In this document: piece after piece, positions 7,255 through 26,212 of the stretch | Numbering within the stretch: the first letter of the stretch is position 1 | Layout: every line of letters begins with the position of its first letter | From: Candidatus Kaiserbacteria bacterium | GTDB taxonomy: Bacteria; Patescibacteriota; Minisyncoccia; Phycocordibacterales; Phycocordibacteraceae | Assembly (NCBI GenBank): GCA_963813065.1 | Contig: CAWEXP010000004.1 | Location: 7,267-71,266, forward strand | Reading direction: 5' to 3' | Length of the DNA: 64,000 bases | The notes under the pieces: model-generated | What the model saw: only the letters and a program-made list of their open reading frames with translations | What the model was told of the DNA's origin: nothing | Database searches by the model: none | Translations under genes and position numbers: made by a program

Positions 7255-8842
7255 ATGCGCAATAGAGTGTTGTTATTGGGATACGACCGCGGACACGGAG
7301 TTGTTCCTGTGTCCCTACGATTTTCTCCACGACATCTACAACTATCGCGCGTTTTTCACTAAAGTTCAAGTTTGGAAGATACTCTCGCGCACGGGAAGCG
7401 TCGTACTCAATCTCTTCCCGTGTTGGCGGGGTTGCAGAGCGATACACTGCCTCCTGTTGGAGTGCGCCGACCCTCTGTGTTTCAAGTGCCGAGATTTGTT
7501 CTCGCACAGGCATGATGTAGTTCTGCAACTCTTCGAGTGAATACAGCCCGGCAGCATACGCCCTGTTGTACCTCTCCTCTTGTGTCCGCAACTTCCCAAT
7601 CTCCTTTTCGATGAGAGGGACGTCCGCCGCCGCTTCTTTGTTATCTGCCCGGAGCGCGGCACTATGTTCGAGATACGCGGCTTCCAGTAGTTCGGGTGAG
7701 GTCATCAGTGATGCCAACTTGTTCCAAAGCGATCTCGTCTGCTACACGAGCATTTATTGGGTGTTCGTAGCATGTACGCGGCAGCGGAAAACAAAGTATC
7801 TTGTCGGAACAGTCGTAGTAGAGATACTTTCCTCGTTTCCGCGCTGCGCCCGTACGCTTTCGTCCGCACGCACACTCCACCCTCCCACCCAGAAGATAGT
7901 CGTACTTCTTATTCCGTGGATTGAGTTTCGCGTGCTCTCCCAGTTTGTTGCGCACAGCATCGAAGAGTTCTTGGTCAATGATGGCAGGAACCGGGACGGT
8001 CATCCATTCATCCGCTGGACGTGGTTTCCGGCTACTCTTCTTCATCTTGCGGTACTTATCCTTGTTGATTGGGTTCTTTGGTACTACGGCGATGGAACTT
8101 CGATAGTGCGCTCGTCCGACATACGCCCCGTTTCGGAGCATTGTAGTGAGCGTACTTGTGCTCCACACGCCGCGCTTGCTCTTGCGTGGCTTGATAGCCA
8201 GCGTCTGCAACTTGCGAACTACCTGTCGGATAGTAAGACCCTCATTCGCAATCCACTTGAAAATCATCCGTACCACACGTGCCTCCTCCTCGTTTATCTC
8301 GTAGTACCCATGCACGCTATCCTTCTTCGGAGTGTAGTTGTACCCGTAGAGAGGCGAACTGACGAGAATGTGTCCTTCTTTGATTTTGCGAAGTTTGCCG
8401 AGGCGAAAACGCTCGTTTATCTTCGCGCGTTCGTATTCCGCGAAAAGTCCGCGGACGCCGTGGATATCTTGTCCTCCGGGTTCTTGGGGGCGGTAATGGT
8501 AACGAAGATTACCTCGATGCCAGCGTCTCGCAGTTCATCCATCACAAGTTCCTGATACGAATACCGACGAGCGAGACGGTCTGGGTCGTAAATCAAGACT
8601 GCTTCCCAGAGTTTTGAGTCTGCATCCTGTCGTAGGGCATCTAGTGATGGTCGAGCGAGGACATCGCCGCTCCATCCATCGTCAATGTATTCCTTTACGA
8701 TAGTCAGCCCATTCTTACCCGCGAACTCTCGCACAGCGCCCAGTTGCGTCTCGATAGTACCGTCTTCTTCCTGACGAGCAGTAGAGACGCGAGCATAAAC
8801 CGCTACCAGTTTATTGCTCTTCGTAAGTGTTTCGTTGTTCAT
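7255..8842 (-). pseudogene. Large serine recombinase (resolvase-family catalytic domain, recombinase domain, Zn ribbon, coiled coil) broken into three frames by at least two frameshifts.
   Basis: Fragment 8417-8842 has VAVYARVSTARQ. The middle fragment has LFAEYERAKINERF and GYYEINEEEARVV. Fragment 7109-7717 is the coiled-coil tail and runs into ychF. The first frameshift sits at a G5/C5 run near 8483-8493. Confidence 0.7.
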
Positions 8843-8844
8843 GG

Positions 8845-9042
8845 TTATTTCTTTTTAGTATTCACGTGCCTATCCATGAACTTTTTGACCTCGCTTTTGG
8901 GTATGCGCCAAAGCGCAGTGTTCCCGTCGCCCAACTTATAGCCCTTCAACGCTCCCTTTCGGAGCCAGCGTTCCACCGTTCGCTCGTGGACGTTGAAGTA
9001 TTCGGCAACTTCTTTGCGAGAGAAAGTCCATGGCGTAAGCAT
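8845..9042 (-). CDS. xis: Excisionase/Xis-AlpA family HTH protein.
   Basis: 65 aa. EVAEYFNVHERTVERWLRKG...WRIPKSEV is HTH_17-like. Sits 2 nt upstream of the recombinase. Confidence 0.65.
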   Translation of the reverse strand: MLTPWTFSRKEVAEYFNVHERTVERWLRKGALKGYKLGDGNTALWRIPKSEVKKFMDRHVNTKKK

Positions 9043-9056
9043 AGTTTGTAATGTGC

Positions 9057-9257
9057 CTAGTTGTCAACCGCATGTTTCTGCTGCCTGTACATAACTCCAT
9101 CTCGATACATCGCATTGAAGAGGACGGCATACGCACGCTTCAGAGCGGTCTGCCGCACCTCGACCGGCTCATCCGACTCTTCGTATACGAGCGTCATCTC
9201 GACGCGTTCAGGTCGAGGCGGACGTTTTTCTTCATTGCTGTGGCTGGTAGCGTTCAT
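9057..9257 (-). CDS. Small hypothetical protein (66 aa).
   Basis: ORF only. Lies in the island next to xis. Confidence 0.3.
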   Translation of the reverse strand: MNATSHSNEEKRPPRPERVEMTLVYEESDEPVEVRQTALKRAYAVLFNAMYRDGVMYRQQKHAVDN

Positions 9258-9663
9258 TGCGGTTTAGACACCTTCGGTTTCTGCCCATCCGCTCCGAGGA
9301 GACAGCGAGAGAAACTATGTAGAAGAGACCGCGCCGAGGAAGAGTGGGTAGATGTCGAGCCGTCGCCGGACAACATTACGGTTTGTAGGAATGGTTTTGG
9401 GTAGTCATTCGACGACCCGCACAGTGTCCCTTTTCGCCCGCCTGCCAACTCCCCTCCTCCTTGGCGAAACTCCTTCTGCCCCGTTGGGCGCGCGGTCTAA
9501 CCGCGCGTAGTAACGAGGCACAAGGGAATATCCCGTTTGGTTGTTTTTATTCCGTGGTGGTGAGATAATCCCAGCCACGTTGGTCTCTTGATGTGCTGGC
9601 GAAGGTGTGTCCAGAACCCTTCGCCTATAAGTAATGGCGAAAAGTCCTCGGATTTTCCGATGT

Positions 9664-9692
9664 AAAGCAAAAAGCCCCGTAGTTCGGGGCTT
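9664..9692 (-). terminator. Rho-independent terminator (gccccgaactacggggc plus T5) after the 276 aa gene.
   Basis: Hairpin at 9674-9690 with a T run on the minus strand. Confidence 0.6.
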
Positions 9693-9713
9693 TCGCAACT
9701 ATCAGGAGTTTAT

Positions 9714-10544
9714 TTACTCCTCGGTGACGTCACCGGAATAGACACCGAACGTGTCGACCATTGTCGATTTCATTTGGTATGCCTTCTCCTTTCGGTAGTC
9801 GTAAAATGGGTCTTCGGAAATACCGAAAAACGTTTTCAACAGTCCGGCGAGGCGCTGTTTTATCTTCTTGTTACTGACATCGGCTTTGGGGTCTCCCCAA
9901 GCCACCCGACCGTCATTTTTTGCTAGAGCAAGGAGGAACGCCCATTGAACGTCGGGCTTGCCGGTTTTGTTGTTACGAAAACCCATTTCGGTAAAGTCCA
10001 CGAGGTGCATCTGTTTTCCAATCCGAACCTCTAACGTATGCCCGTCCTTGACGGTCATTATGATGTCCTCCCAGTTTGTGTTAGATGGTATCCAGCCGGG
10101 AGTACGCACACGCTTTGGATTATCTTGTTCCTCTTGCGGTCGACCCAGCGTCTTTCGCAACTCATAAAGCCACTCCAACCTCTGGGCGGTTTCCTTTCGT
10201 ATGTTGCGTAAAAGTGTTTGCGATGCCTGTGAGCGTTGGTCGCCATAGGCAAGTCCACCTTTCAGGTACGGCACGTCGTAGGATGCAGAAAAGCGCTGCG
10301 CAATGTCGCGCTGTGGATGCCGTGGCTTCGTCAGTCCTTCTTGCTGCATGTATTCCATTACTGCCACTCTCCACAAGGAAAAGCGGTTATGGACATCTAC
10401 TGCGAGAGCGGGGTTATCGGAATAGATAGCGTCGCCTTCTTGCGCCATCCGTGTTATCTCAATGCCCACTTGAATAAGGTCGTCGAGCGACTCCCATTCG
10501 ACTGGCGGCACGTGAACGACATTCTGTTTGTGAAGTTTGCTCAT
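9714..10544 (-). CDS. Hypothetical protein (276 aa) in the defense island. ATGA start/stop overlap with the upstream 264 aa gene.
   Basis: No recognisable domain. Translational coupling, rev-comp of tcat at 10541-10544. Confidence 0.5.
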   Translation of the reverse strand: MSKLHKQNVVHVPPVEWESLDDLIQVGIEITRMAQEGDAIYSDNPALAVDVHNRFSLWRVAVMEYMQQEGLTKPRHPQRDIAQRFSASYDVPYLKGGLAYGDQRSQASQTLLRNIRKETAQRLEWLYELRKTLGRPQEEQDNPKRVRTPGWIPSNTNWEDIIMTVKDGHTLEVRIGKQMHLVDFTEMGFRNNKTGKPDVQWAFLLALAKNDGRVAWGDPKADVSNKKIKQRLAGLLKTFFGISEDPFYDYRKEKAYQMKSTMVDTFGVYSGDVTEE

Positions 10545-11335
10545 GTTCTTTCGGTAGCCCGCGTCTTCGCTCCTATCATCTTGACCTGCGCCACCAACGT
10601 CTCCAAGAACCAGAGAGCATCCGCTTCTCCCGGCTCTTCGGTATTGCCGGTGTGAGCCACGCCGCTGGCATCACCCCGATACGCGTAGAGTTTTTCGAGG
10701 ACGCCTTGTTGTGCGGCAGCGACGACACCTCTATCACGGAGGACACGCAACGCTGCGGTGTAGTCCTTCTGTCCGGCAAGTGCTTTGACGTAGTCCTCCA
10801 TCGCAATAGCAAAATCCTTCACGATGTCATTTGCACTACGTCCACGTGTGAGCAGGTCATGGAGGGCACGTTGGAAGAAATCAAGCGCCTCGGCTGACTG
10901 TTCGCCAAGCGTTTTCTCTACCGCATCGACATTCTGCGCGGTCTCTTGGGGTATCACCAGAACGACCTCTCCGTTCTCGTTTATTCCGTACACGCTTCCC
11001 GCAGTCCTGAACGCGACCGCAACATCGCGCAATGTTTCGTCGTATGTCTGCTGGTACAAGTTTGCATGAACGAGATGAAGGAAAATCTCGGTTGCCTCAA
11101 ACACCTCGTCGTATGAGCCGCGACGGATGGCGTCCAGTCCTATTTTGTTGAGGCGCACACTGGTTTCGTGGTCAAGTTGTCCACGATTGAGAAAGTAGCC
11201 CTCATTACCAATCCCGATGTGGTAGCCGGTGCGAGCATCTACAATCGCTGCCAGTCGACTGCGCAAACCGTCAGATGCCTGTTCATAGCCGGAGTATTCG
11301 GTCTGTATTTTGTTGCGGGCGCGAAAGTAAGCCAT
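10541..11335 (-). CDS. Hypothetical protein (264 aa) with an Abi_C/HEPN-like C-terminal motif.
   Basis: C-terminus LEKLYAYRGDASGVAHTG...EADALWFLETLVAQVKMI resembles an Abi_C/TIGR02391-like R...AH.G motif. Weak, from memory. Confidence 0.45.
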   Translation of the reverse strand: MAYFRARNKIQTEYSGYEQASDGLRSRLAAIVDARTGYHIGIGNEGYFLNRGQLDHETSVRLNKIGLDAIRRGSYDEVFEATEIFLHLVHANLYQQTYDETLRDVAVAFRTAGSVYGINENGEVVLVIPQETAQNVDAVEKTLGEQSAEALDFFQRALHDLLTRGRSANDIVKDFAIAMEDYVKALAGQKDYTAALRVLRDRGVVAAAQQGVLEKLYAYRGDASGVAHTGNTEEPGEADALWFLETLVAQVKMIGAKTRATERT

Positions 11336-11341
11336 GGGTGG

Positions 11342-11935
11342 TCAGGCGACTTTTACTTCACGGTAATAGCCGTTCTCCTGCTTGAAGTAATAGAGTACTT
11401 CTTTGTAAGGAGTTTTGCGCTGAAACTCGTTTTTCGGCAATCCATTGAAATGGCAGTAGATGAGCGGGAAGTTGTGGTACTCGTCGCCCTCCAAGGAGAC
11501 GAAGTCAATCCATTCGTAAGGAACCTTACCTGCCGGGAATACAACGAACTCGTGCTGTGTGCTACCGCGCACTAACTCCACTGTGCCATCTTCCCGCTCA
11601 TTCGCGCCAACAGGCATGTCCATAAAAAACTCCACTCCGTCGAAACGGCACTCCTTCATTTCCGCTTTCAGGTCGACCCAGTGCTTACTGTTCACACCGG
11701 ACGGATACTCCTTTCGGTGTCGCTTGGTGTCTATAAGACGCACCTCACTTGCGTACTGCTTATAGCGTACGTTCATCTCCAACTCGCGCAGTTTCTTTTG
11801 TACGGCTTCCCGATGTTGCAACAACTGCCGCTCCGAGCGTTGTCGGGAAAGCCAGAATGTAACGAATGGAGAAATGACGGCGAGTAGTGCCAGCAGTGCC
11901 GTAATCCAAGTGTAGTTTTCATTGAACCAGTTCAT
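11342..11935 (-). CDS. Hypothetical protein (197 aa) with one N-terminal TM helix and a cytoplasmic domain.
   Basis: WITALLALLAVISPFVTFWL TM helix. Packed 6-7 nt from its neighbours. Confidence 0.45.
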   Translation of the reverse strand: MNWFNENYTWITALLALLAVISPFVTFWLSRQRSERQLLQHREAVQKKLRELEMNVRYKQYASEVRLIDTKRHRKEYPSGVNSKHWVDLKAEMKECRFDGVEFFMDMPVGANEREDGTVELVRGSTQHEFVVFPAGKVPYEWIDFVSLEGDEYHNFPLIYCHFNGLPKNEFQRKTPYKEVLYYFKQENGYYREVKVA

Positions 11936-11942
11936 AGTCTAT

Positions 11943-12281
11943 TCATCCTTTCTTGAAAATGCGCACGACGGCATCGACCACATACTTTGCCGGAGCAATA
12001 AACGCGGTGCCCGCCTTCTTCCACAGCATCTTTGTCTTCCATGGATAAGCAGTGCCGCATTTATGACAGTTGAGCGGAACATCCTGACCCCCGCCGCCAG
12101 CGATACCATCAAAGTGATGGTATCCCCGTATGTGAGCGCTACAGTGCAAACAGACATGGGTCGTTGCGCTGCCACATCGACGGCAGAACTCCTCACGTTC
12201 GGTTGGGTAGGTGTCATAGTATTCGGTGATTTGATGACCCCATCGTTTACACACCTGCATTGTGTCGTAGTGGTCGCTCAT
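11943..12281 (-). CDS. Cys/His-rich zinc-ribbon protein (112 aa).
   Basis: CRRCG...CLHCSAH...CHKCG motifs. Lies 4 nt downstream of the GmrSD-like gene. Confidence 0.4.
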   Translation of the reverse strand: MSDHYDTMQVCKRWGHQITEYYDTYPTEREEFCRRCGSATTHVCLHCSAHIRGYHHFDGIAGGGGQDVPLNCHKCGTAYPWKTKMLWKKAGTAFIAPAKYVVDAVVRIFKKG

Positions 12282-12285
12282 GAGT

Positions 12286-14073
12286 TCAATCGAGCAAATG
12301 CATCACGAATGACCTGCGCCATGCGCTTTCGACGCACTCTGTGAGGAAGTGCGGGTACTCCATGTTCTGCCACCCCTCCGGGAGCGCGTGCCAATAATAC
12401 GCTTCTTTGCGCGCCGCCTCGTCGCCATTGAAGCGGGCGAGGTATCCGGGGAAATACACGCTCGGTGGATTGTCGCTAATGTCATTGTTGTCGCCCCACT
12501 CGACGAGCGCGTAGTTAGCGACTTGGTTGATTTCTGCGAAGTCCTTTACTCCGATGCGAGCAAGGTATTTGCGCGGAAAGAGGTGGTGCCGCTCCAACGC
12601 CGCCCGCTTCTCTTTCACGCCGTCTTCCAAGAGTTGCGAGGTCGTAAGATTGGAGAAGAGGACGCGAGCACCAAGGATGTTCAGCGCTGCATAGTAAGCA
12701 AACATCGCCGGGTTGCGCGCGGCACCGCTCACGAGTCCGCTGGTCGGGAGAGTGATGTTCCAGTAGTCATCGGTGATTTCGGTTTCGATGATTTTGGAAA
12801 GAATGTTCTCCAACGTCTCGCCTCCGAACTTCGCCTCACCAAAACGGGCAGAGCCGAAAAGCGCACGTCCGCGCTGGATAGCGCCGAGGTCTTCCTCCAT
12901 TTGGGTCTCTGCTGATTTGGTGTACCGACCGGTAAGTGAGATGAAGAAGAACCAGCGCGCAATAAGTTTTCGTAGCGACGGTGCCTCCATGTTGAAGTCG
13001 TATTTCCCTATGAGGAAGAGCGTGTAGGCGTACATGATGTTGTACGAAGAAGTAATCATGCCGCCGCGTGTGTACCCCGCTTCTTTGAGTGCTTTGAGGA
13101 ACTCGTGCCAGTTGTTGAGGTTGAGGGTCTTCTCTTGCGTCTCCTTCAGGATGGCGAACTGCTCTTCGCGTCGCTCGTTGCTGAACTCTTCGGTCTTCAG
13201 GTCTTTCCCGCGCAGGATGCTGTAAGCGTATTTCAGGCGGGCACGGTTGAAACCAAAACCGACAGCGACACGAAGCATCTGGTCTGGGTCGGGCTGGAAA
13301 ATGTAGTTGAAGGGTGTCGCGTGTCCTTCTGCGGGTATGCGGGCAGCACGAGCGAAGTTCTCCAACGCGAAACGCCCCTCATCCCAGAACACAGACATGA
13401 GAGTGAGCACGAAGTCCGTCTCTTTGAGACGTTTCCCTTTGCTGTTGATGCGCACGAAAATCTGTGCCACTTCTTCCTCGGATGCGGTTGAAGAGATTTC
13501 GAGTACCGAAAAGAGGAAGTGCTCCAAGCCGCGTAACTTCCCAATGGCATCCGCTGCTTTATTCTCTTCTTCGCTGGTAAGTCCGCGTGTCGAGCGCAGT
13601 TTCTCCAAGTAATCATTTGTGAAGCGGTTGAAGTTCTCGGTGCCCCATACTTCTGCAATGTCTTGAATGTATGCGGGGTCGTTTTTCGTGCTGGCGTCGG
13701 GCACAACGAACAGTTCTTCAACCGGATTGAAGGCGATGACGACCCTCTCTTTCTCGTAGTCTTCGCGGACAATCTCTTTACCCTTCACAACCGCGAAAAG
13801 CGATGTGAGGCGCTGCTGACCATCCACAATGAGGAAACGCGGAATGTGGTGCTTTGCCTCATCGCCGATGGTCTTGGTGTTGGCTTGATGGACATTCTCC
13901 CAGAAAAGCAGGTGCCCTATCGGGTAGCCACGGTACATACTGTCGAACAGGTCGCGGACTTGGGTGTTCTTCCAGACAAACGGTCGCTGAATGTCAGGCA
14001 AGCCAATGACGCCTCGGTCGATGTCTTCGATGAGACCCATCAGTCGATACTCTGTGCTCTTGAAGAGTGCCAT
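12286..14073 (-). CDS. GmrSD-like type IV restriction/defense nuclease (DUF262 ParB-like N-terminal domain plus DUF1524 His-Me finger C-terminal domain).
   Basis: DGQQRLTSL motif (DUF262). C-terminus ERHHLFPRKYL...NYALVEW (DUF1524-like). 595 aa. Confidence 0.75.
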   Translation of the reverse strand: MALFKSTEYRLMGLIEDIDRGVIGLPDIQRPFVWKNTQVRDLFDSMYRGYPIGHLLFWENVHQANTKTIGDEAKHHIPRFLIVDGQQRLTSLFAVVKGKEIVREDYEKERVVIAFNPVEELFVVPDASTKNDPAYIQDIAEVWGTENFNRFTNDYLEKLRSTRGLTSEEENKAADAIGKLRGLEHFLFSVLEISSTASEEEVAQIFVRINSKGKRLKETDFVLTLMSVFWDEGRFALENFARAARIPAEGHATPFNYIFQPDPDQMLRVAVGFGFNRARLKYAYSILRGKDLKTEEFSNERREEQFAILKETQEKTLNLNNWHEFLKALKEAGYTRGGMITSSYNIMYAYTLFLIGKYDFNMEAPSLRKLIARWFFFISLTGRYTKSAETQMEEDLGAIQRGRALFGSARFGEAKFGGETLENILSKIIETEITDDYWNITLPTSGLVSGAARNPAMFAYYAALNILGARVLFSNLTTSQLLEDGVKEKRAALERHHLFPRKYLARIGVKDFAEINQVANYALVEWGDNNDISDNPPSVYFPGYLARFNGDEAARKEAYYWHALPEGWQNMEYPHFLTECVESAWRRSFVMHLLD

Positions 14074-14088
14074 ACCTAGTATTATCTC

Positions 14089-15378
14089 CTACTTCTGACC
14101 CTCAATAAGAGGCACGTTCTCTGTAGCAATCTTTGATGGCAATCGGGGTTCTTCGTCAATGGTTTGCACCGTCTCTGCTTCGATTTGGAGTCGCCCGCCC
14201 AGATTGTCTATCACCTCTATTTTCGGCATCACACGCGAGTCCCACGAGTTCGCAGCGCTGTTGAACTTCTCGGTCGCTTTGGAGAGCGAACTACCGATAC
14301 CAACGAAGTGCCCAATGAACGCTTTGAGCCGGGCACCGAGGTCGATGACCTCCGTTGCCAACTTCGATGCGTTCTCAACTGACTTGTGTTGCCGCCATGC
14401 GTGCGCGATGAGAAGAATGAGTGGCATGATGGTCGCCGGACTGGCGAGCATGACTTTCTTCTCCTGTGCTTCGCGGTACAGGTTGGTATCGTGCTCGAAC
14501 ACGGCTCGTATCGCCGCTTCACCGGGTACGAACATAACGACGTATGGGATACGCTCGTCGAGATGCTTTTGGTATTCCTTACTCGAAAGGGCTTTGATGT
14601 GCCCACGGAGGTTCTGCGCGAACTTGCTCAAATGTTCCTGCTTCTTCTCTTCGTCCTTCTCTTCGACTGCCTTGAAAAACTCTTCCAGCCCTGCCTTGGA
14701 GTCGATAGCCAACTGCAAGCCGCCCGGAAGGTTTACCACCACGTCTGGACGCAAACGCTCGGCTTCGTCGTTCGTAAGGGTCTCTTGAATGTGGAAGTCG
14801 ATACCTTCCGTGAGTCCTGACTCTTCGAGGAGGTTCTTCAGTACCGTCTCGCCCCAACGACCGCGCACAGCGCTTGCGGACGAAAGCACTGTTTTGAGTG
14901 ATGTCGCCGACTCCTGCATCTTCACACCGGCGTCGAGGACGTTCTTGATGCTCTCGCCGAGTGCACCGAACTGCTCGCCACGCTCCTTTTCGAGGGCGCT
15001 TATCTTCTTCTCTACGGTTTCGATAGACTTGTTGACGCCTTCGGCGATTTTCTCGAAGCCCTTTTCCTTGCTCTCGATTGCTTGGGTATGTGATTTCTGT
15101 ACGCGCTCGAACTCCGAGAGAAAGTCCTTGGAGTGCTCGCGCATAACATCTCCGGCAATCGCCTTGAACCGCGCTTCCAGTTGCCCGACATCTTTCGACC
15201 GCTCTTCGAGAGCGCGTTTCTCCACGGCGATTTCTTGGTCTTTCGCGCGAAGTTCTACATCCTTTGCTTGGATTGCGGCGTTCTTCTCGACAAGTGCCTG
15301 CTTGCTCTTGGAGGAAGCGATGAAATACCCCGCTCCGCCCCCGATTGCCAACGCGATGATGAACCAGAAGTATTCCAT
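14089..15378 (-). CDS. rmuC: DNA recombination protein RmuC.
   Basis: N-terminal TM (MEYFWFIIALAIGGGAGYF), long coiled coil and RmuC nuclease-like C-terminus. The ORF-track N-terminal extension to 16293 is an artifact overlapping hsdR. Confidence 0.8.
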   Translation of the reverse strand: MEYFWFIIALAIGGGAGYFIASSKSKQALVEKNAAIQAKDVELRAKDQEIAVEKRALEERSKDVGQLEARFKAIAGDVMREHSKDFLSEFERVQKSHTQAIESKEKGFEKIAEGVNKSIETVEKKISALEKERGEQFGALGESIKNVLDAGVKMQESATSLKTVLSSASAVRGRWGETVLKNLLEESGLTEGIDFHIQETLTNDEAERLRPDVVVNLPGGLQLAIDSKAGLEEFFKAVEEKDEEKKQEHLSKFAQNLRGHIKALSSKEYQKHLDERIPYVVMFVPGEAAIRAVFEHDTNLYREAQEKKVMLASPATIMPLILLIAHAWRQHKSVENASKLATEVIDLGARLKAFIGHFVGIGSSLSKATEKFNSAANSWDSRVMPKIEVIDNLGGRLQIEAETVQTIDEEPRLPSKIATENVPLIEGQK

Positions 15379-15398
15379 GATGTTATAGGTTATCTCTG

Positions 15399-17861: not shown

Positions 17862-17863
17862 AG

Positions 17864-19063
17864 TTATGTTTGCATAGCGAACGATTGGTTGAGCACCGAG
17901 GAGCGCAAAGCGGTGAAATGTTCCTGTTGCCTATCAAACAGTTGTTCGATTTGGTTTGTTGTGGAGGTCATCTTCTCCAACTCATCGGCAAGCCGTTCTT
18001 GTTCTTTGAGGTCAGGTTCGCCATTCTTCATCGGTATTCCCAGTTTTACTTTCACGAGGTCGGTTTTGGTTATGTGGCGCAGCCCAGCCCCTCCGTGCGA
18101 GTTGGCTATCATCTCATCGAGTTTTTCATTGACCGCGTACTTCAAGTACCTGCGAGAAAGCAGGTCTGTTTTCGGAACGGCGTTGAAGATGTGCTGATTG
18201 AGTATCGCCTTGCCTCTGCTCCAAATAAATGCGCCAAAGGATGTGCCGGGTGTTCCTGACCATGCAATCAACAGGTCTCCGGTGTCTATCAAGAAGCGCT
18301 CTTCAACTGGATGCTCGTAGTGGTTGTATTTTGCGTCAGGGTTATTGAGGTTCTGTATCCGAACAATCGGCAATCCTTTCGCTGACCAATCGGTCTCCTT
18401 GAACGCCCGACCATTTTGCAGGTCAAGCACTTCTCCGAGTGCTATTTCAGCAAAGTCAGGTCTCTGCAAGAGTTCTCTCGCAACGCCAAAACCCAAGGAC
18501 TTTGCCAGCCGTTCGTTGGCTTCGTTTGTACGCACACCTTTTTCTACCTCTGCAAAAACCATTTCTAATCTGTCCGCGATGCGTTTCTGCTCGGCGAGGT
18601 CGGGTTTGCCGTTCGAGAACGGAATGGAAATCTCGATTTCGTTGAGTAGTTCGCGATTGAGAGCCGGGTATTGCGCACCCTGTGTCAAAGCGGTCGTCTG
18701 GTCAACGAAACCATCTGATAACGCGCAATAGAGCAGAAAGCGAGGTTCGAGGTCTGACGACTTCTCTATAACAAAGAAGCCAGTTGATGCGATGGCACCG
18801 TCGTACTCCTTCGGCACTACAGCAAATCCACGCAAATAAGGTCTCACGCTGGCAATCAGTAAATCGCCTTCTCGTACTACTCTACGCGCCCTCGAAGGAG
18901 CGTTTGAGCGGGAGAGTGTTTTTGGGTTCACAACTGTACCGCCCTTCACCGCATCGATGTCGATGTACGTAAACTGCGCAGGCAAATCACCCGGACTTAT
19001 TGAGTGGGTGTTTATTGAGAAGAGCGTGCTTCCGAGTTTTTCTTTACGCCATTCCATACTCAT
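17864..19063 (-). CDS. hsdS: Type I R-M specificity subunit HsdS (two target-recognition domains).
   Basis: Duplicated TRD architecture with conserved central and distal coiled regions. 4 nt overlap with hsdM. Confidence 0.9.
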   Translation of the reverse strand: MSMEWRKEKLGSTLFSINTHSISPGDLPAQFTYIDIDAVKGGTVVNPKTLSRSNAPSRARRVVREGDLLIASVRPYLRGFAVVPKEYDGAIASTGFFVIEKSSDLEPRFLLYCALSDGFVDQTTALTQGAQYPALNRELLNEIEISIPFSNGKPDLAEQKRIADRLEMVFAEVEKGVRTNEANERLAKSLGFGVARELLQRPDFAEIALGEVLDLQNGRAFKETDWSAKGLPIVRIQNLNNPDAKYNHYEHPVEERFLIDTGDLLIAWSGTPGTSFGAFIWSRGKAILNQHIFNAVPKTDLLSRRYLKYAVNEKLDEMIANSHGGAGLRHITKTDLVKVKLGIPMKNGEPDLKEQERLADELEKMTSTTNQIEQLFDRQQEHFTALRSSVLNQSFAMQT

Positions 19064-20703
19064 TTCGCCACCGCCTTTTTCAGCGAGGTCAAAAGTGTCT
19101 CTATCTCGCGCTGGTTCTTCTCTATCTCACCAATGATTTCCACGGGCGGCAAGAGCGCTTCACTCTCTGCGCTGTTGGGGTTCTTTGGCGAAATGTCCCA
19201 GCCACGTTCTCGGATGGTCTCCCCCGGGACAATCCACGAAGTATCCGAGACCTCGCGCTTCTTCCACTTCTCGAAGACCTCCTCCAAGTGCTCGTCCATC
19301 ACGTTTTTCTTCTTGGTGAACTTGCCCTGTACCTCGCCGTACCAGATTTCCTTTGTCGCACCGGTCTTCTCGAAGAAAACGAGGTTGGTTTTCACGCCCG
19401 CACCCATCTGCGCGAAAGTGCCCTGCGGAAGCGAGATGATTGCAGAGACGTTGAACTTCGTCAGGAGGTCTTCGCGTATGCGAGCCATGGCTCCGCCGCC
19501 GAAGAGGATGTTGCCTTCGGGAAGAATGACACCGCAACGTCCTCCGTTTTTGAGACGCTTCATTACGTATTGGAGCGCGAGACCTTCAGTTGCGCCCACT
19601 TGTATCGGGTAGTTGTTCTGTACCGTCTTCGGCTCTTCAGCGCCGAACGGAGGGTTGGTGAGGATGACATCGACCTTCTCACTCTCCGGCATGTTGTGCA
19701 CGTCCTCCATAAAGGTGTTCGTGCGCGTGATGTTCGGCACGAGGACGTGGTGGAGAATGAGGTTCATCGTGCCGATGAGGAATGGCAACGGCTTCTTCTC
19801 TTGACCATAGAGCGTTTTGGTTTGCAGCGTCTTCCATGCGCGGACATCCTTCGTGGAGTTCTCATAGATGTGATTGAAACTCTCAACGAGGAAGCCGCCG
19901 GAGCCAACGAACGGGTCGAGGACGGTCTCGCCCAACTGCGGGTTCACGATTTTGACCATCAGCCGGATGAGCGGGCGCGGCGAATAGAACTCGCCCGACC
20001 AGCCACCTTCGCTGCCCATCGCTTGCAGGATTTCTTCGTACACCTGCGAGAGCAGGTTGGTGTCTTGGAAGTGATGCTTCTCTATCTTGTCGAGTATCTC
20101 GATGACATCGAGCAGGTTGTGCGGCGAGCGGATGCGGTTGCCCGGCAGTTCGCGGAAAATCTCCCCGATTTTGTCGCGGCGCGGGTCGCCCTTCAGTGCT
20201 TGCAGGTACGGGAACAGTTTTTGATTTATGAAAAAAATGAGTTCGTCTTTGTCCTTCCAATCCTTCTTCGCCCACGCCGACCACTGATACTCGGCGTCGA
20301 TGACCGGCTGATACTTCCGTCCCTCCGCCTCTTCGAGTTCTTTCAGTTGCGCTTCGACGCCCTCAAACACTTTGAGGAAGAGGAGCCACGAGAACTGTTC
20401 GATGTAGTCCTTCGCACCGACGCCATCGTCGCGGCGGAGGATGTCGCAGACGTGTTTGATGTCCGCCTTCGTCAAACTCTCGCGCTTGCTCACCATCTCT
20501 TTCTCGATGCCACGCACGACCTCCGGCGCTTCGCCTTCAACAAACGCTTTGAGGGCACTCGCCGAGATGCGCCACGTACCGCCGACCTTCTTGGCTGCGA
20601 GTTTCTTATCGTGGATGTAGCGGAAGGCAGTGCGCTCGCTCACGTGGAGCAGGTCGGCTACCTCATCGAGCGCGTAGAGTCGGTCGGTCGTGGTTTCGTT
20701 CAT
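19060..20703 (-). CDS. hsdM: Type I R-M N6-adenine methyltransferase HsdM with an N-terminal Xis/MerR-like HTH fusion.
   Basis: TNPPFG motif. N-terminus ALDEVADLLHVSERTAFRYIHDKKLAAKKVGGTWRISASAL is HTH_17-like. Confidence 0.9.
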   Translation of the reverse strand: MNETTTDRLYALDEVADLLHVSERTAFRYIHDKKLAAKKVGGTWRISASALKAFVEGEAPEVVRGIEKEMVSKRESLTKADIKHVCDILRRDDGVGAKDYIEQFSWLLFLKVFEGVEAQLKELEEAEGRKYQPVIDAEYQWSAWAKKDWKDKDELIFFINQKLFPYLQALKGDPRRDKIGEIFRELPGNRIRSPHNLLDVIEILDKIEKHHFQDTNLLSQVYEEILQAMGSEGGWSGEFYSPRPLIRLMVKIVNPQLGETVLDPFVGSGGFLVESFNHIYENSTKDVRAWKTLQTKTLYGQEKKPLPFLIGTMNLILHHVLVPNITRTNTFMEDVHNMPESEKVDVILTNPPFGAEEPKTVQNNYPIQVGATEGLALQYVMKRLKNGGRCGVILPEGNILFGGGAMARIREDLLTKFNVSAIISLPQGTFAQMGAGVKTNLVFFEKTGATKEIWYGEVQGKFTKKKNVMDEHLEEVFEKWKKREVSDTSWIVPGETIRERGWDISPKNPNSAESEALLPPVEIIGEIEKNQREIETLLTSLKKAVAK

Positions 20704-20711
20704 GAAGCCAT

Positions 20712-20739
20712 CCTATACCCGCCCGCCCCGTTTGTCAAC
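20712..20739 (-). promoter_or_regulatory. Candidate sigma-70 promoter for hsdM (TTGACA, 16 nt spacer, TATAGG). The ATG is 8 nt downstream, so possibly leaderless.
   Basis: Reverse complement of tgtcaa at 20734-20739 and cctata at 20712-20717. Additional TTGACA-like boxes nearby. Confidence 0.3.
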
Positions 20740-20803
20740 ACTTGTCTTGTCTATAACTCTACTTGACACAACATGACATAGAGTCCTATTGGGTGCCCCA
20801 TCG

Positions 20804-21115
20804 TTAGAATACGGCTCCTTTACTTGATTTTATCATACCTCCGCACTTCGAGCACTGGTCTCCTGACTCCAAAAAAGACCCTATTTCGCCGCAACGGGGG
20901 CATTTCGTATCGTTTTCCATCATCTCGACTACCTGCCCGCAACCAGCACAGTACCGCTCGGAGGTGTATCGAGCGACATACTGCTCGTTTGCCTGTCCTA
21001 CAGGCACCTTGGCGAGGTTCGGCGGCGTATCCGGTTTCCACTCTGGCACGTCCTGCACGAGGCGCACACGGAAGTTGCAGGACAAGTTCTCGCAGCGGAG
21101 GATGAGCGAGTTCAT
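20804..21115 (-). CDS. Zinc-ribbon protein (103 aa), last gene of a 4-gene translationally coupled cassette.
   Basis: CAGCG...CPRCG...CSKCG. ATGA overlap with the upstream gene. Confidence 0.4.
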   Translation of the reverse strand: MNSLILRCENLSCNFRVRLVQDVPEWKPDTPPNLAKVPVGQANEQYVARYTSERYCAGCGQVVEMMENDTKCPRCGEIGSFLESGDQCSKCGGMIKSSKGAVF

Positions 21116-21447
21116 GGCTTCGACTCGTCTTCAATCGCCTTTCGTCCTTCCTTCACTTTGTCCTCAAAATCATGGCGTGCGAGCAGGTCGAAGAAGCCGA
21201 CCATGTCGTTGTCCACGATAGACGTATCAGCCGAGCCGCTCGGCTTTGCGACGAGCCGCTCGTGCTCCAAATCGTGTTCAAGTATCGTTGCGGTGCTACC
21301 GATGTCGTCCGACCCGGTGCGCTTCATAAGCGAGAGAAGCCACCCGGCAACGTACTCCCTGTTCTTCGCGGCTATGGGGTACAGATTTGGAAAGTCTCTC
21401 TCGGTAAGGTCGACGCCCAAGATGTTGATGGTCGCGTGCCGCGTCAT
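21112..21447 (-). CDS. Hypothetical protein (about 111 aa, start MTRHATIN).
   Basis: ATGA overlaps at both ends (21112-21115 and 21444-21447). The ORF-track N-terminal extension is R/S-rich and probably not translated. Confidence 0.35.
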   Translation of the reverse strand: MTRHATINILGVDLTERDFPNLYPIAAKNREYVAGWLLSLMKRTGSDDIGSTATILEHDLEHERLVAKPSGSADTSIVDNDMVGFFDLLARHDFEDKVKEGRKAIEDESKP

Positions 21448-21626
21448 GCGAGTCCGAGAAGATGCGTAATGAGCGCTATGAACACGACTGCGAGACCGAG
21501 AACGAGCACCGCTATGGCTGCTGGCACGAGACCGGCGAAGACCATCACGAGATGGTTGAACCAACTGGCGAGCGTCATGCGCTTGCCGTCGTCTTCCCAC
21601 ACCTCGTACCAGTGCTGCGTACTCAT
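21444..21626 (-). CDS. Small membrane protein (60 aa).
   Basis: One or two hydrophobic helices. ATGA coupled to both neighbours. Confidence 0.3.
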   Translation of the reverse strand: MSTQHWYEVWEDDGKRMTLASWFNHLVMVFAGLVPAAIAVLVLGLAVVFIALITHLLGLA

Positions 21627-22180
21627 GGCTTCATCTTCTGCGTTCGCCCCTTACCATCGACCACGAAGTCGGGGGCGTTCCTGTCGTTCCATCGCTCGAC
21701 CGTTCGCGCCTTTCGGATTGACCAGACGATGAGTGCGCCTCCGAGTAGGAAGATGAAAACACTCACACCATAGGATGCGTCCGTAGAGTTGGTCTTTATG
21801 ATGCCGAGTCCCATGAGCACGAAGACAAAGCCGAGCAGCCGTAAACTCTGTATCGTTTTCGTAGCATCCTCCATTCGCCGCTGCACATGCAATCGCTTTT
21901 CGGCTGGTGATTTCAACTCTTCGAGAACCGACGCCCGGCGTTGTCGATGAAGCGCGTATCTTACGAGAATGACGGAAGCGATAACCGAACCGAGTATGAA
22001 AACGAGTACCCACGGGTCAGTCCAGTGCCAGATGAGCGTAGAAAGCACGAGTGCTGCGGCGTAGCAGACAAGTGCGGTGTTGGAAAAAGGTTTTGGTAGT
22101 TTGAGTTCGCTTGGGCGCATGGGATTGCGCCGGGCGGTCGCAGAGAACCCGCCACGGGCTACGGCTTGCGCCGTACGCAT
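21623..22180 (-). CDS. Membrane protein with four predicted TM helices (start may be MRPSELKL at 22120).
   Basis: Two hydrophobic hairpins separated by a basic helical linker. First gene of the coupled cassette. Confidence 0.4.
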   Translation of the reverse strand: MRTAQAVARGGFSATARRNPMRPSELKLPKPFSNTALVCYAAALVLSTLIWHWTDPWVLVFILGSVIASVILVRYALHRQRRASVLEELKSPAEKRLHVQRRMEDATKTIQSLRLLGFVFVLMGLGIIKTNSTDASYGVSVFIFLLGGALIVWSIRKARTVERWNDRNAPDFVVDGKGRTQKMKP

Positions 22181-22368
22181 CAGTTTCCCAATGCGGCACG
22201 TAATGCGACCCCATGACGGGTTCTCTACGCATTACGTGTCTCCCGACCATGCCACCGTTACCGATGGTTTAGGTCGTCGCCCTTGCGGGCTATTCGTGTG
22301 TCTTCCCCTCACAAGAAGGGTTACTGATAAGTGTAGCGCATTTGCTACCAAGTGCTACCAAGTGTTCA

Positions 22369-22926
22369 TCACTCCTTACACTCGGCTTTCCTCTCCCGCT
22401 CGTACTGGTCTAGATAGGCGGAGAGCGATGGCGAAGAGAGAACACGGCTGGGCGTTTTTGCCATTGACTTCGAGTACCCGGCGGCAAGCAGCATGTCCCC
22501 GTAGTGCAACCATCTGCGACCATTATCCGATAAGATTTCTACGAGTCGGAGTTGCCGAGAATTGAGCGTCTGATGCCTTCCGGTTGGCAAGACAGCGCAT
22601 TCTTTTTCGCTTCCCACGTCCCCCTTATTTCCCTCATCTTCCGATGTGTTTCTGCTGCCCGTACCTTGGCTCATCGCGTCGCACCCGTTCCACCATCTTC
22701 CACCATCTTCCGATAAGTTTTCAGTGGAAAGAGAGGGTTGCGTCATTACCTCTTGGCTATCTGCTGGGGTAGCCACGTACCCCTCTTTTCCAGTACCTTC
22801 CGATGAGTTGATAGTATCCTTCTGTTCAATGTTCATACGTTTTTGTAACCTAGATAATAACGAAGCCCCGCCCACGCCTTTTCGACCCGTCTGCCGCTCT
22901 CCTTTCCCATGTGTGCAAGTTCTCAA
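22369..22926 (-). CDS. Phage terminase small-subunit-like HTH protein with a low-complexity SEG/SED-repeat N-terminal region.
   Basis: C-terminal LNSRQLRLVEIL...GDMLLAAGYSKSMAKTPSRVLSSP resembles the TerS P27 family AGYS..A motif. Repeated cttccgat and ccaccatctt DNA repeats. Confidence 0.3.
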   Translation of the reverse strand: MRTCTHGKGERQTGRKGVGGASLLSRLQKRMNIEQKDTINSSEGTGKEGYVATPADSQEVMTQPSLSTENLSEDGGRWWNGCDAMSQGTGSRNTSEDEGNKGDVGSEKECAVLPTGRHQTLNSRQLRLVEILSDNGRRWLHYGDMLLAAGYSKSMAKTPSRVLSSPSLSAYLDQYERERKAECKE

Positions 22927-23221
22927 TCTTCCATTCGAGTTCTACAGGGGTCGTGATGATAGGCGCATAGGGCTTCTTATTACTAACGGGTAGCAGCGCA
23001 ACGACTCGCTCCACTTCCGATGTCCCAAAGCGCCGCAAGACCCGCTCCATGGCGGCACGCTGGGACTTATTGGGGTAGAGACGCTTGTAACTTGGGTTTA
23101 CCGCCGCGAACCGCCCAACCATCTCGTTCACGAGAGCACCAATGCTTGTCGAGCGCCGTAAGCCCTCAAATAGCGAGATTTGGACTCGTACACTTCCCTC
23201 CGCTTTTCGCGCTCGTTCCAT
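22850..23221 (-). CDS. Hypothetical protein, possibly a phage or plasmid replication/regulatory remnant.
   Basis: ORF only. Overlaps the previous ORF frame, so the true start is uncertain. Confidence 0.25.
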   Translation of the reverse strand: MERARKAEGSVRVQISLFEGLRRSTSIGALVNEMVGRFAAVNPSYKRLYPNKSQRAAMERVLRRFGTSEVERVVALLPVSNKKPYAPIITTPVELEWKIENLHTWERRAADGSKRRGRGFVII

Positions 23222-23224
23222 AGG

Positions 23225-23449
23225 TCATTTGGCGGCTTCAGCGCCCGTATCAACAGTGGAGTATGAAAATCGTCTTGGAGCCGGGTTTTTGGCTCGTAGC
23301 GCTTTGGAAACTGTCCGGTAGTCCGGCGGCGGTAGTTGTATTACAAACTCAAACGGGATGCCTTTCGTTGTGCCATTTATTTCGTGGGCATGGTGTATAG
23401 AGTTCAGACCATGCCGATTCGTAACATGATTCAAACCTACCGCGCGCAA
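23225..23449 (-). CDS. Small hypothetical ORF (74 aa).
   Basis: ORF only. Adjacent to an AT-rich noncoding stretch. Confidence 0.2.
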   Translation of the reverse strand: MRAVGLNHVTNRHGLNSIHHAHEINGTTKGIPFEFVIQLPPPDYRTVSKALRAKNPAPRRFSYSTVDTGAEAAK

Positions 23450-23633
23450 GGATAAAAAGAAAGGTCGTTTTTGCCAAACAACCTGACATGCATGAATGAA
23501 TGTTGATTTGTTTGCCCAATTCCGATGTGTGGATAATGTTGAAATGTGTTGCTTTTGTGCTAACCTAAAGACAGGTCGGTTGGCTTAACGCCTAGCTACC
23601 CTCTCAGCGTATGGTAGGACCGCAAGGGACTGA

Positions 23634-23672
23634 CCACAAAAGCGCCTCATGATTTGTCATGGGGCTTTTTTG
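23634..23672. terminator. Bidirectional terminator hairpin (gcctcatga-tttg-tcatggggc) with flanking A/T runs, after the DUF3800 gene.
   Basis: 9 bp stem with one G-U pair. T6 on the plus strand. TTTTGTGG on the minus strand after the stop at 23647. Confidence 0.55.
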
Positions 23673-24537
23673 TAGCATCAGTACCCCACGGAACTTTCAC
23701 TGCATCGGGAACTTTTACCAAACCATATCCGGCAATCCGTCCTTTAACATTGTGATAAAAATTCTCTGTAATACGGGAGAAAAAAGAGTATTCAACTAAT
23801 GCGTTCCCTTCCGGCGATTCCCAGCTGTCGCCATGTTGTACGAACTGACGGAATATATTGTAAGCAACCGTATCGGCAAGCTGAAGAAAATTTGAATTGC
23901 ACGATTTTTCGAAACGTACACATGCGTGCGAATATTTCTTTTGGTATGAACCGAGATTGAGATCTCTTTTAGAAATCCTCAGGAGCGTACCATGATCGTG
24001 TTTCTGAGACTTGATACTTTCCTCCATTTGGTCAAAAACAATCTCGGCACCACTATTTGGATGTAGTTCGACCCGATCGAACAAGACCTGTGCCAACTCT
24101 TGAAATGGCGTTACCTTCGTTCTTTTCGCGTTATAGAACCGTTTATCAATGATAAACGCTTGAATCTGAATACTCTCACGATTTTTCTCAAACAGACTAT
24201 ACCAAGCATTCTCAACAAACCGTTTAAGGGTCTCTTCGGTAATGGCAAATGGTTCAAGATATTTCTTACGCCGTTTTATCGGAATGCGTAGCCACTCTGA
24301 TTTTATCTCGACGTGTTTTGTACCAAAGTACTCATGTTTCAAAGCGTCTATTTCCGGATTTATTCGGGCAACAGCCTCAGTTGATACATATATGCCAGCA
24401 AGCACGAAGTAATTTCCACGCCAAAATTTTATGTTTTCGTTGATGCGAGCTGGTGGTTTCAATATGAACTCATGGGCATAAGGAGTTTCCCAATCTTTAG
24501 AGCCACTATCATCAACAAAGAAGAACGGTTTGTCCAT
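23647..24537 (-). CDS. DUF3800-family protein (defense-island associated), in a distinctly AT-rich segment.
   Basis: N-terminal FFVDDSG and C-terminal FLQLADTVAYNIFRQF match the DUF3800 signature. GC clearly lower than the flanks. Confidence 0.65.
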   Translation of the reverse strand: MDKPFFFVDDSGSKDWETPYAHEFILKPPARINENIKFWRGNYFVLAGIYVSTEAVARINPEIDALKHEYFGTKHVEIKSEWLRIPIKRRKKYLEPFAITEETLKRFVENAWYSLFEKNRESIQIQAFIIDKRFYNAKRTKVTPFQELAQVLFDRVELHPNSGAEIVFDQMEESIKSQKHDHGTLLRISKRDLNLGSYQKKYSHACVRFEKSCNSNFLQLADTVAYNIFRQFVQHGDSWESPEGNALVEYSFFSRITENFYHNVKGRIAGYGLVKVPDAVKVPWGTDATKKPHDKS

Positions 24538-24554
24538 ACTTCAAGTTGGCCTTT

Positions 24555-25058
24555 CTAATTCTGAGGAAACGCACGGAAACGGATGTACCAAAAGAGTGCG
24601 AGGAGGAGTGCGGTCGCGAGGATGTAGAGTGCGACCGCGGAGCCGAGGGCGATGGCCGGTACCTGGCCGAGCGCGAGGAGCGCGAGGAACCACCATGCGG
24701 AGAAGATGCCCGCCGAGCCGAGCGCGAAGGCGATTCGCTTTTTCGAGAGCAGCCACGAGAGGAGGATGATGAGGAACGCGAGCGCCGTCTGGATCCAGTA
24801 CGCACTCTGGAGCGCCGGTGCGGGCACGACCTGACTCGTGTATGCACTAATCACGAGCCCGAGCGACGCGAGCAAGAGGAGCGACATGCCCCAGCGGAGC
24901 CCGTGCGCGATGTTGCGCAGATGTGCGCGCTCGGCCGTGTCGATGACGCCATCGCGCGCCGCGCGGAAGTACGCGATCTCGGCCCATACCGCGTAGCCCG
25001 CGCCGATGACGGCGCCGAGTGCCTGGATTGCGACGAGTACGGCAGTGAGGGTCGTCAT
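24555..25058 (-). CDS. Hypothetical 4-TM membrane protein.
   Basis: 167 aa of alternating hydrophobic helices. Confidence 0.45.
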   Translation of the reverse strand: MTTLTAVLVAIQALGAVIGAGYAVWAEIAYFRAARDGVIDTAERAHLRNIAHGLRWGMSLLLLASLGLVISAYTSQVVPAPALQSAYWIQTALAFLIILLSWLLSKKRIAFALGSAGIFSAWWFLALLALGQVPAIALGSAVALYILATALLLALFWYIRFRAFPQN

Positions 25059-25060
25059 AG

Positions 25061-25291: not shown

Positions 25292-25319
25292 GTGGGCAGT
25301 ATACCACCGCGCGGGCGCG

Positions 25320-25771: not shown

Positions 25772-25868
25772 TTGTGCGCAGGATGCAAGACCTGCGAGGC
25801 CAAAATCCAAAAAACTGTGGATAAACCCGCACACCAAATGTTGGTGTGCGGGTAACTGCACAACCCCC

Positions 25869-26194: not shown

Positions 26195-26212
26195 TCCTTA
26201 CTCATTCAAAAC

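Follow-up and report, generated by a model that had tools for sequence, protein, structure and literature searches.

Large serine recombinases (LSRs) that integrate mobile DNA at the ychF gene are known from Actinomycetota, where LSR-encoding pipolins use this site (Mateo-Caceres et al., 2024; PMC11551731). The present analysis concerns a 64,000-nucleotide (nt) stretch of DNA from a Candidatus Kaiserbacteria bacterium (hereafter the window; all genes discussed lie on its minus strand and all coordinates are window positions), in which the region from about 7238 to 23415 is very probably a 16.2-kb integrative element of Patescibacteria (Paceibacterota) that was moved by an LSR, sits in ychF at codons 4-5 and has begun to decay. 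The element shares with pipolins the LSR, the ychF site and exchangeable defence systems (PMC11551731). However, these pipolins reside in Actinomycetota and encode piPolB, the primer-independent family B DNA polymerase whose gene defines a pipolin, whereas the window element has a Patescibacteria host and no detectable piPolB, as is also the case for a related element at locus L081, which carries an AAA_25 primase-helicase in place of piPolB. No PolB domain was found in the main open reading frames (ORFs) of the window element (minus-strand ORFs of at least 100 amino acids (aa) without an in-strand rival were scanned), and judged by its genes the element is not a pipolin. The main text of the pipolin study does not contain the word attP and describes no anatomy of att sites, for example an attP located within the LSR ORF or a ychF gene with a replaced 5' end (PMC11551731).

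Islands that split a target gene and regenerate it have been described for dusA-specific integrases (PMC4482086) and for tRNA genes (Islander, PMC4383910). As at the ychF gene of the window, the island provides a surrogate gene end, and the displaced fragment of the target marks the far border. The same holds for SXT, which inserts in the 5' end of prfC. All of these use tyrosine integrases and leave direct repeats of tens of bases, whereas the window element has a serine recombinase and a repeat of a few bases at most. Integrase genes that contain their own attP are known from Myxococcus phage Mx8 (intP/intX) and Sulfolobus virus SSV1. In both, as in the window LSR, the recombinase gene has a 3' end that is altered or cut off upon integration, and the free and integrated forms encode different proteins; the recombinases of Mx8 and SSV1, however, are tyrosine recombinases. 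No description of an attP inside the gene of a serine integrase was found in the literature searched, and we know of no account of such an arrangement for an LSR.

A further parallel comes from Streptococcus pneumoniae, in which the expression of ychF is reported to be under the control of a defective prophage that lies upstream of the gene (cited in PMC8637289). As far as that citation goes, this too is a decayed element with an integrase gene immediately upstream of ychF, but its attB lies between a DUF951 gene and ychF, not inside ychF, and both the recombinase and the host are different.

Insertion of a foreign element at ychF

The ychF gene of the window (6151-7254, minus strand) is intact and encodes a 367-aa protein with the Pfam domains MMR_HSR1 and YchF-GTPase_C. 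The best relatives of this protein are encoded at loci L001 (79% identity) and L003 (81% identity), from metagenome-assembled Paceibacterota / Patescibacteria genomes. The initial annotation, which described a defence island of roughly 17 kb between positions 7255 and 24545, had proposed a comparison with the ychF region of related genomes, and this comparison yields an empty site. In L003, the homolog of o24555 (24555-25058, minus strand), which encodes a host membrane protein, ends about 40 nt before the ychF ATG, and in L001 the homolog lies near ychF with one additional gene in between. Neither LSR sequence nor LSR tail sequence was found when sought in L001 and L003. The compositional discontinuity that the initial annotation had asked for is also present. 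Measured in 3-kb windows, tetranucleotide usage in the island lies at a distance of 25.7 from the rest of the window, compared with 14.9 +/- 2.6 outside the island; its correlation to background is 0.71, compared with 0.92 outside. Both measures shift at about 7 kb and at about 24-25 kb. GC content is 0.543 at 7237-23413, 0.421 at 23428-24554 and 0.571-0.575 in the flanks. Composition and the empty site in relatives both mark the island as foreign, and the 16.2-kb stretch is a genuine defence island, gained by horizontal transfer and equipped with an LSR integration module at ychF.

Both borders of the element are defined by hybrid attachment sites. At the ychF end, attR (7215-7275, minus strand; P arm and B' arm) reads GCGCAT ATG GCT CTG AAG ATA GG/T ATC GTC GGT TTG CCC, where the slash follows the proposed crossover dinucleotide GG (7239-7238), within ychF codons 4-5 (Ile-Gly). 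This site was defined against attP-type genes (L083, L085, L098 and L099), the attB of L001, L003 and L005, and the attL of the window. At the other end, attL (23391-23451, minus strand; B arm and P' arm) reads TTTGAATC ATG TTA CGA ATC GG/C ATG GTC TGA ACT, with its GG at 23415-23414. It contains a displaced native-type ychF start (ATG 23427-23425, MLRIG) fused to an LSR tail, HGLNSIHHAHEINGTTKGIPFEFVIQLPPPDYRT...AAK and stop. This displaced LSR 3' end (23228-23413, minus strand; 61 codons) was recognised when the window was searched by tblastn with the native tails of class B recombinases (described below), which gave a match at 23440-23270 (best E 1e-7). With a single copy of the core counted, the element spans about 7238-23415, or 16,176 bp.

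When the left part of attR and the right part of attL are joined at GG, a 597-aa LSR results in which the class B 'DRHG' motif is regained. This rebuilt protein aligns over nearly its full length with five class B proteins at 55-58% identity (for example, residues 3-583 with residues 10-584 of the 591-aa P0069). The reciprocal join rebuilds attB and gives a ychF gene starting MLRIGIVGLPNVGKST, identical to the N-terminus encoded at L005. The rebuilt attP junction reads ...GAAGATAGG/CATGGTCTGAAC..., and the rebuilt attB junction reads ...CGAATCGG/TATCGTCGG..., or, written otherwise, ...TTACGAATCGG/TATCGTCGGTTTGCC... Thus, as in an LSR element, hybrid attL and attR sites rebuild attB and attP and share only a very short core.

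No direct repeats are expected between the ends, given that the enzyme is a serine recombinase, and the search for repeats of the junction suggested in the initial annotation, an approach not expected to work for such an enzyme, returned chance-level 10-mers only (7200-7340 against 23200-26400). Two short cores had been considered as the junction, TA at 7264/24540 and TATGG at 7252-7256/24537-24541, and both were dropped after the displaced tail was found at 23.4 kb.

The crossover was set at GG and not at the neighbouring AT because of the pattern of the wobble base after GG and because GG is non-palindromic. In recombinase genes that end in out-of-frame ychF sequence (class A, below), the base following GG is host-like (N 27, Y 15, H 15, D 2), whereas in class B it is nearly fixed (H in 32 of 44). 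Serine integrases need a non-palindromic central dinucleotide if their sites are to have a fixed orientation. On these grounds GG, over the adjacent AT, would be the exact crossover dinucleotide.

attP inside the recombinase open reading frame

The LSR gene of the window (7240-8842, minus strand) is in three pieces, ends at attR and matches the Pfam families Resolvase (PF00239, E 7.7e-22, with the catalytic motif VYARVSTARQ present), Recombinase (PF07508, E 1.4e-19) and Zn_ribbon_recom (PF13408, 24.7 bits, slightly below the cut-off of 25.3). With its frame repaired, it has 3,291 homologs at E < 1e-20 among 8,000 scored candidates, so that the clade numbers at least thousands. The best 120 homologs are 57-66% identical to the window LSR and fall into two main groups by their C-terminal ends. 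In class A (59 of the 120), the protein ends in a strict out-of-frame signature of the ychF P-loop. Class B (46 of the 120) has a longer native tail, ...NHVEFKTxHRHGxNxxRH...IPFEFxIxLPPP..., and the remaining 15 have unclassified tails, mostly resembling looser versions of the class A signature.

The last LSR fragment of the window keeps an open frame that continues out of frame through ychF to a stop at 7109. The initial annotation had reported this read-through and had linked it to the integration junction of an island immobilised by recombinase decay. The read-through is real, but it is no sign of decay, as it is seen in the 59 class A homologs and in the intact 547-aa recombinase P0004 of L081, which also enters ychF out of frame and whose C-terminal DRHRRTPERREVHPL is a shifted reading of IGIVGLPNVGKS. 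It is instead a property that intact genes of the family share, and it arises because attP lies within the LSR ORF.

Class B genes do not adjoin ychF (L083 from Bradyrhizobium, L085, L098 and L099), yet a ychF-like stretch is present in the +1 frame of their 3' ends; in L083 it reads ATG TCG AGT TCA AAA CTA GCA ATA GGC AT, or MSSSKLAIG, and the stretches in L085, L098 and L099 are similar. Judged by its sequence, this ychF-like stretch is the attP, located within the recombinase ORF. The N-termini of YchF proteins agree with this assignment. At nearly all of 80 fetched element-free ychF loci, YchF begins with M, two or three residues and IG (MLKIG, MSLSIG), whereas YchF encoded next to an LSR begins with M, six residues and IG (MAGSKLQIG, MSSTKLAIG, MSGSKQTIG, MSHSTLSIG), like the attP mimic. 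By this N-terminus analysis and by the att reconstruction, the start codon and codons 1-4 of the window ychF (7254-7240) are derived from the element and not from the host.

These features suggest the following sequence of events. The attP in the 3' part of the LSR ORF imitates the 5' end of ychF (ATG, a few codons, ATH-GG) and would recombine with attB at about the GG of Gly5, inside ychF codons 4-5. The insertion hits ychF and at the same time gives it a substitute start and first codons, so that the gene stays intact, while the native ychF start is stranded 16 kb upstream at attL. The last 61 LSR codons are stranded there too, and the integrated LSR ends in out-of-frame ychF sequence. The cargo consists of anti-phage defence genes, namely a complete type I restriction-modification (R-M) system together with rmuC, a gene for a GmrSD-like enzyme and one that is PDC-S32-like. 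Decay has since begun: the LSR bears two frameshifts, and no replication gene of the kinds known from sister elements is recognisable, with cargo and att sites kept.

Solved LSR structures cover the catalytic domain only, and not the tail. The class B protein P0087 was modelled with AlphaFold2 (mean predicted local distance difference test score, pLDDT, 73). In the prediction, a beta-hairpin at 498-516 (...LQIYGHIPV) is followed by a low-confidence linker at 518-542 and a final strand at 543-552 (IPFxFxIxLP). This linker is the segment that the attP or ychF-mimic DNA encodes, an arrangement that would let the DNA match ychF and place no constraint on the fold. Dozens of integrated genes stay open without the tail, which suggests that the truncated form still works, presumably in excision.

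As a separate observation, L098 carries an attL-like copy (12668-12790; MSSLSIGFVG... followed by a tail 83% identical) 1 kb downstream of a class B LSR whose tail is intact. This second copy could reflect a tandem or nested arrangement.

Related elements and fossils at ychF

Insertion at ychF recurs in other genomes. In all six loci for which DNA downstream of the LSR is available (L081, L082, L084, L086, L087 and L088), ychF follows the LSR, and the host YchF proteins of these loci are 44-84% identical to that of the window. In two Paceibacterota sequences, L081 and the P0010 contig, an intact 547-aa LSR is preceded by an HTH_17 gene, an ORF of 55-59 aa and an AAA_25 gene; the LSR is followed directly by ychF and, further on, by leuS (order xis-LSR-ychF...leuS). 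Cargo differs from element to element and is always related to restriction or defence: type I R-M and GmrSD in L081; Z1, two methylases, GmrSD-HNH and DUF2130 in the P0010 contig; a C5 methylase, a PD-(D/E)XK nuclease and Schlafen/AlbA_2 in L084; and an N6/N4 methylase in L086. Replication genes differ as well, with an AAA_25 primase-helicase in L081 and Toprim in L091.

Three further Patescibacteria genomes contain an attL without an LSR (L027 1270-2960, L049 5600-10010 and L063 8060-10010). In these fossils, the working ychF is preceded at a distance of 1.6-4.3 kb by a native ychF start joined to an LSR tail, in the same architecture as the attL of the window. In L016 (73-186), the last 38 LSR codons alone are retained. 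The fossils and the L016 remnant look like later stages of the same decay.

Several points weigh against the account given here of a single LSR element inserted in ychF. The placement of GG depends on wobble-base statistics and on the regained RHG motif, and the P arm of the window is atypical, with its ATG 9 nt downstream of the usual position (MALKIG as opposed to the MSSxKLxIG type). Both ends of one element are visible in the window alone, the attL of the sister elements lying beyond the 10-kb flanks. In principle, attL and attR could stem from separate events, with cargo turnover between them. Class B genes such as that of Bradyrhizobium may have a target other than ychF. Lastly, the frameshifts are seen in a single assembly, as exact-sequence look-ups with ychF, the LSR N-terminal fragment and xis returned no independent assembly.

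Decay of the integration module

The initial annotation described the recombinase as broken by frameshifts, and comparison with P0004 locates two of them: a 1-nt deletion between 8465 and 8462 (DKI^LHGV, the caret marking the break) and an extra g at 7730 (ADEI^LWNK). In tblastn, the window LSR aligns with P0004 in three segments and two frames, the N-terminal two thirds being 73-80% identical. With these two frameshifts, the intact recombinase ORF of an active element is lacking, and the LSR is a pseudogene in the window assembly. Intact features of the element include its defence cargo, attL and attR, the HTH_17 gene and the ORF of the displaced tail. The HTH_17 gene (8845-9042, minus strand), termed xis in the initial annotation, encodes an excisionase-like protein of 65 aa (Pfam HTH_17, E 6e-13) and has counterparts directly upstream of the LSR in the sister loci L081, L082, L086-L089, L091 and L096. 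Its product is a candidate directionality factor or regulator.

Between xis and the next gene, u276, lies an ORF-poor spacer of 671 nt (9043-9713), at the place where the sister elements have their replication gene. No remnants of a replication gene were detected in the spacer at the protein level, no nucleotide homologs of the spacer were found among the fetched loci, and no replication gene of the kinds known from sister elements is recognisable anywhere in the window element. Among the hairpins of the spacer, one is clearly a terminator and several others are long and GC-rich. The spacer was considered as a possible structured RNA on the basis of a folding z of -10.8 with 20 shuffles, but the recalculated value is -5.4 on both strands, controls reach -4.8 and there is no Rfam match, and this candidate was set aside.

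Decay of the element is read from the two LSR frameshifts and the lack of a recognisable replication gene. Mobility has probably been lost, so that the defence island would now be fixed as long as no recombinase is provided in trans. The alternative is that the element is still mobile, the frameshifts being assembly or sequencing errors, or being bypassed by an LSR from elsewhere in the genome. The intact att sites, xis-like gene and displaced tail ORF would fit such an element, and no second assembly of the stretch was found; genomes of this kind are usually metagenome bins. Nevertheless, the two indels are confined to a single gene of 1.6 kb and neither affects a homopolymer, while about 13 kb of neighbouring ORFs, including genes for 820, 595 and 547 aa, are uninterrupted. 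The lack of a recognisable replication gene also speaks against mobility, as do the genomes with attL-only fossils, which indicate that decay is common at the ychF site. Continued mobility is therefore improbable, although it is the best placed of the alternatives. The immobilisation suggested in the initial annotation is thus plausible in view of the two frameshifts; loss of mobility is likely and not proven, because the indels rest on the present assembly. We infer both this loss and any functional effect of the loss of the LSR tail.

Cargo genes

The gene content listed in the initial annotation (hsdM-hsdS-hsdR, rmuC, a GmrSD-like gene, a cassette of then unassigned genes, xis and a broken LSR) was borne out by profile searches. 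The genes hsdM (19060-20703; N6_Mtase and HsdM_N), hsdS (17864-19063; Methylase_S in two stretches) and hsdR (15399-17861; HSDR_N, ResIII, Helicase_C and EcoEI_R_C) form a complete type I R-M operon on the minus strand (15399-20703). HsdM has an N-terminal HTH_17 (excisionase-like) domain at residues 12-57, before HsdM_N and N6_Mtase. Next to the operon, rmuC (14089-15378, minus strand) encodes 429 aa from an ATG at 15378, a start read from the translation (Pfam RmuC, E 2.7e-79).

The GmrSD-like gene (12286-14073, minus strand) had been described as DUF262/DUF1524. The DUF262 part is confirmed (Pfam GmrSD_N, PF03235, E 9.5e-33; PADLOC HEC-05 and PDC-M55C). DUF1524 was not detected in the C-terminal half by Pfam at E <= 0.01, and what is seen there is an ERHHLFP...N motif (HHLFP...N in its core) recognised by eye. 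The gene encodes a putative type IV restriction enzyme.

Four genes on the minus strand make up the cassette at 9714-12281: u276 (9714-10544), u264 (10541-11335), u197 (11342-11935; an N-terminal membrane helix by eye) and a DUF2321 gene (11943-12281). They were scanned against Pfam, PADLOC, PHROGs and NCBIfam. The product of u264 is PDC-S32-like (PADLOC PDC-S32, E 1.6e-10 over profile positions 93-273 of 285), and a 65%-identical homolog carries PF18863, AbiJ_NTD4. Homologs of u264 occur in other Patescibacteria elements, bounded by tyrosine integrases, without the other three cassette genes, and an identical u264 gene is present in sequencing run ERR11630400. Element L086 encodes a 598-aa protein, part of which is a relative of the u276 product. 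The idea that the cassette is a single conserved system was rejected, as only u264 recurs elsewhere, and its members are treated here as probably separate cargo or backbone genes.

Towards attL, the minus strand holds a zinc-ribbon protein ORF (20804-21115), a 162-aa ORF (21112-21600) and a 185-aa ORF (21623-22180), to which no family could be assigned in profile scans. They are followed by o22369 (22369-22926) and o22850 (22850-23221), the latter encoding a protein with 40% identity over 83 aa to part of an HTH_36 protein (L084:7483-8223).

The product of o22369 had been taken for a TerS-like phage remnant in the initial annotation, and it bears on whether the element could be the remains of a prophage and not a non-viral integrative element. 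LSRs are common as phage integrases, and a TerS-like 'AAGYSKS...' motif can be recognised in o22369 by eye. This resemblance stays at the level of the motif, as o22369 has no match in Pfam or PHROGs. Ten ORFs scanned against PHROGs, including all those at the attL end, gave no credible structural or packaging match, and Pfam revealed no virion structural or packaging family in any ORF of the region. An IMG/VR scan returned no relatives of the LSR clade, and LSRs from phage collections are all at most 31% identical; across phage, plasmid and IMG/VR collections no close relative of the clade was found (best identity 32%). Intact sister elements carry a primase-helicase or Toprim together with defence cargo, and virion genes are absent from them over a distance of 10 kb. 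A prophage origin is thus quite unlikely, more so than continued mobility, and the region is better read as a non-viral integrative element.

LOOT RNA and the DUF3800 stretch

A LOOT RNA (Rfam RF03000), which is an orphan motif, is located inside the element at 22160-22275 on the minus strand (84.2 bits against a gathering threshold of 46.4, model positions 1-121) and is the single copy in the window. Further LOOT RNAs were found at L084 4839-4973, L086 3246-3365, L091 1206-1323, L102 5715-5834 and L104 587-706. All five loci are Patescibacteria mobile elements, three with an LSR of the ychF type and two bounded by tyrosine integrases, and scans of flanks outside the elements gave no LOOT RNA. 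An ORF begins 50-70 nt downstream of the RNA in L102 and L104; in the window and L091, the LOOT 3' end is identical, with GGGAAACTG-ATG as the start of the next ORF.

Outside the element, between attL and o24555, is an AT-rich stretch (23428-24554, GC 0.42) with a gene of Pfam family DUF3800 (23647-24537, minus strand; GC 0.41, GC at third codon positions 0.39), which follows the o24555 stop by 17 nt and precedes the displaced native start of ychF by 219 nt. RNA motifs associated with DUF3800 genes have been described (PMC5737381). Beside the DUF3800 gene of the window there is no Rfam match (E up to 0.1), and hence none of these motifs. No fetched locus contains a DUF3800 match, and the stretch is absent from all fetched relatives. 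Because attL lies at about 23414 and the stretch has a GC content of its own, making it a third kind of DNA at this locus, it falls outside the LSR element and is a separate acquisition at the same variable spot.

The least probable of the alternatives, a single 17.3-kb island at 7255-24545 with a junction in the non-coding or hairpin DNA at 7255-7330 and the DUF3800 gene as its right end, which was the proposal of the initial annotation, agrees with the facts that all DNA between ychF and o24555 is extra relative to L003 and that the whole stretch is compositionally atypical, but it is hardly tenable given that the displaced LSR tail and native ychF start (23413-23427) lie 1.1 kb inside the proposed right border, that GC is 0.42 in the DUF3800 stretch against 0.54 in the element and 0.57 in the host, that 7255-7330 is LSR coding sequence, from which conserved LSR-derived sequence runs on through the ychF ATG to a crossover in codons 4-5, and that the hairpin at 7300-7323 is not conserved. 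This hairpin lies in the LSR codons for GTQEQLRV; among eight homologous 3' ends it folds in two, those of the window and of L081, the closest sister, and is absent from the other six.

The DNA around the LSR element has some features of its own. The tRNA-Ala gene at 26273-26346 was considered as an alternative att site, but no supporting junction was found. It belongs to a cluster of seven tRNA genes downstream of the island (26273-33281) that includes three further tRNA-Ala genes, with two adjacent copies of tRNA-Ala(TGC) at 33088-33281; composition is moderately atypical at 30-34 kb. On the other side of ychF, the editing domain of the window's leucyl-tRNA synthetase (1566-4430) is followed by an inserted NUDIX domain (residues 388-514), and the leucyl-tRNA synthetase of L081 (16522-19395) has the same insertion.

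Implications for Patescibacteria and their recombinases

ychF is already known as a serine-recombinase target from pipolins. What the element adds is a base-level description of attB, attP, attL and attR for an LSR clade of at least thousands of members, many of them in Patescibacteria. The mobile elements and defence repertoires of Patescibacteria are poorly known, and serine integrases with defined sites are useful tools for genome engineering. The target of about 20 bases lies in a nearly universal gene, which could account for the presence of close recombinase relatives (57-66% identity) in different phyla.

A broader reading of the family can be offered only tentatively. The attP may lie in the linker before the final strand (IPFEFxIxLPPP), so that integration would remove this strand and excision would restore it; the element would then make two recombinases, which might act as a switch of directionality or activity. 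The element would also take over the start of ychF and its upstream region, and LOOT RNA might be a hallmark component of mobile elements in Patescibacteria, those with serine and those with tyrosine integrases alike. If true, this would be a two-form switch comparable to IntP/IntX of Mx8, but in a serine integrase.

For annotation, the locus teaches that a recombinase ORF running into its neighbour can mark an att site and not a defect. For the organism, the element would mean that a bacterium with a small genome gains a full defence set (type I R-M, RmuC and a GmrSD-like enzyme) and fixes this set through decay of the mobility genes, a process of which intermediate and end stages appear to be visible in other genomes.

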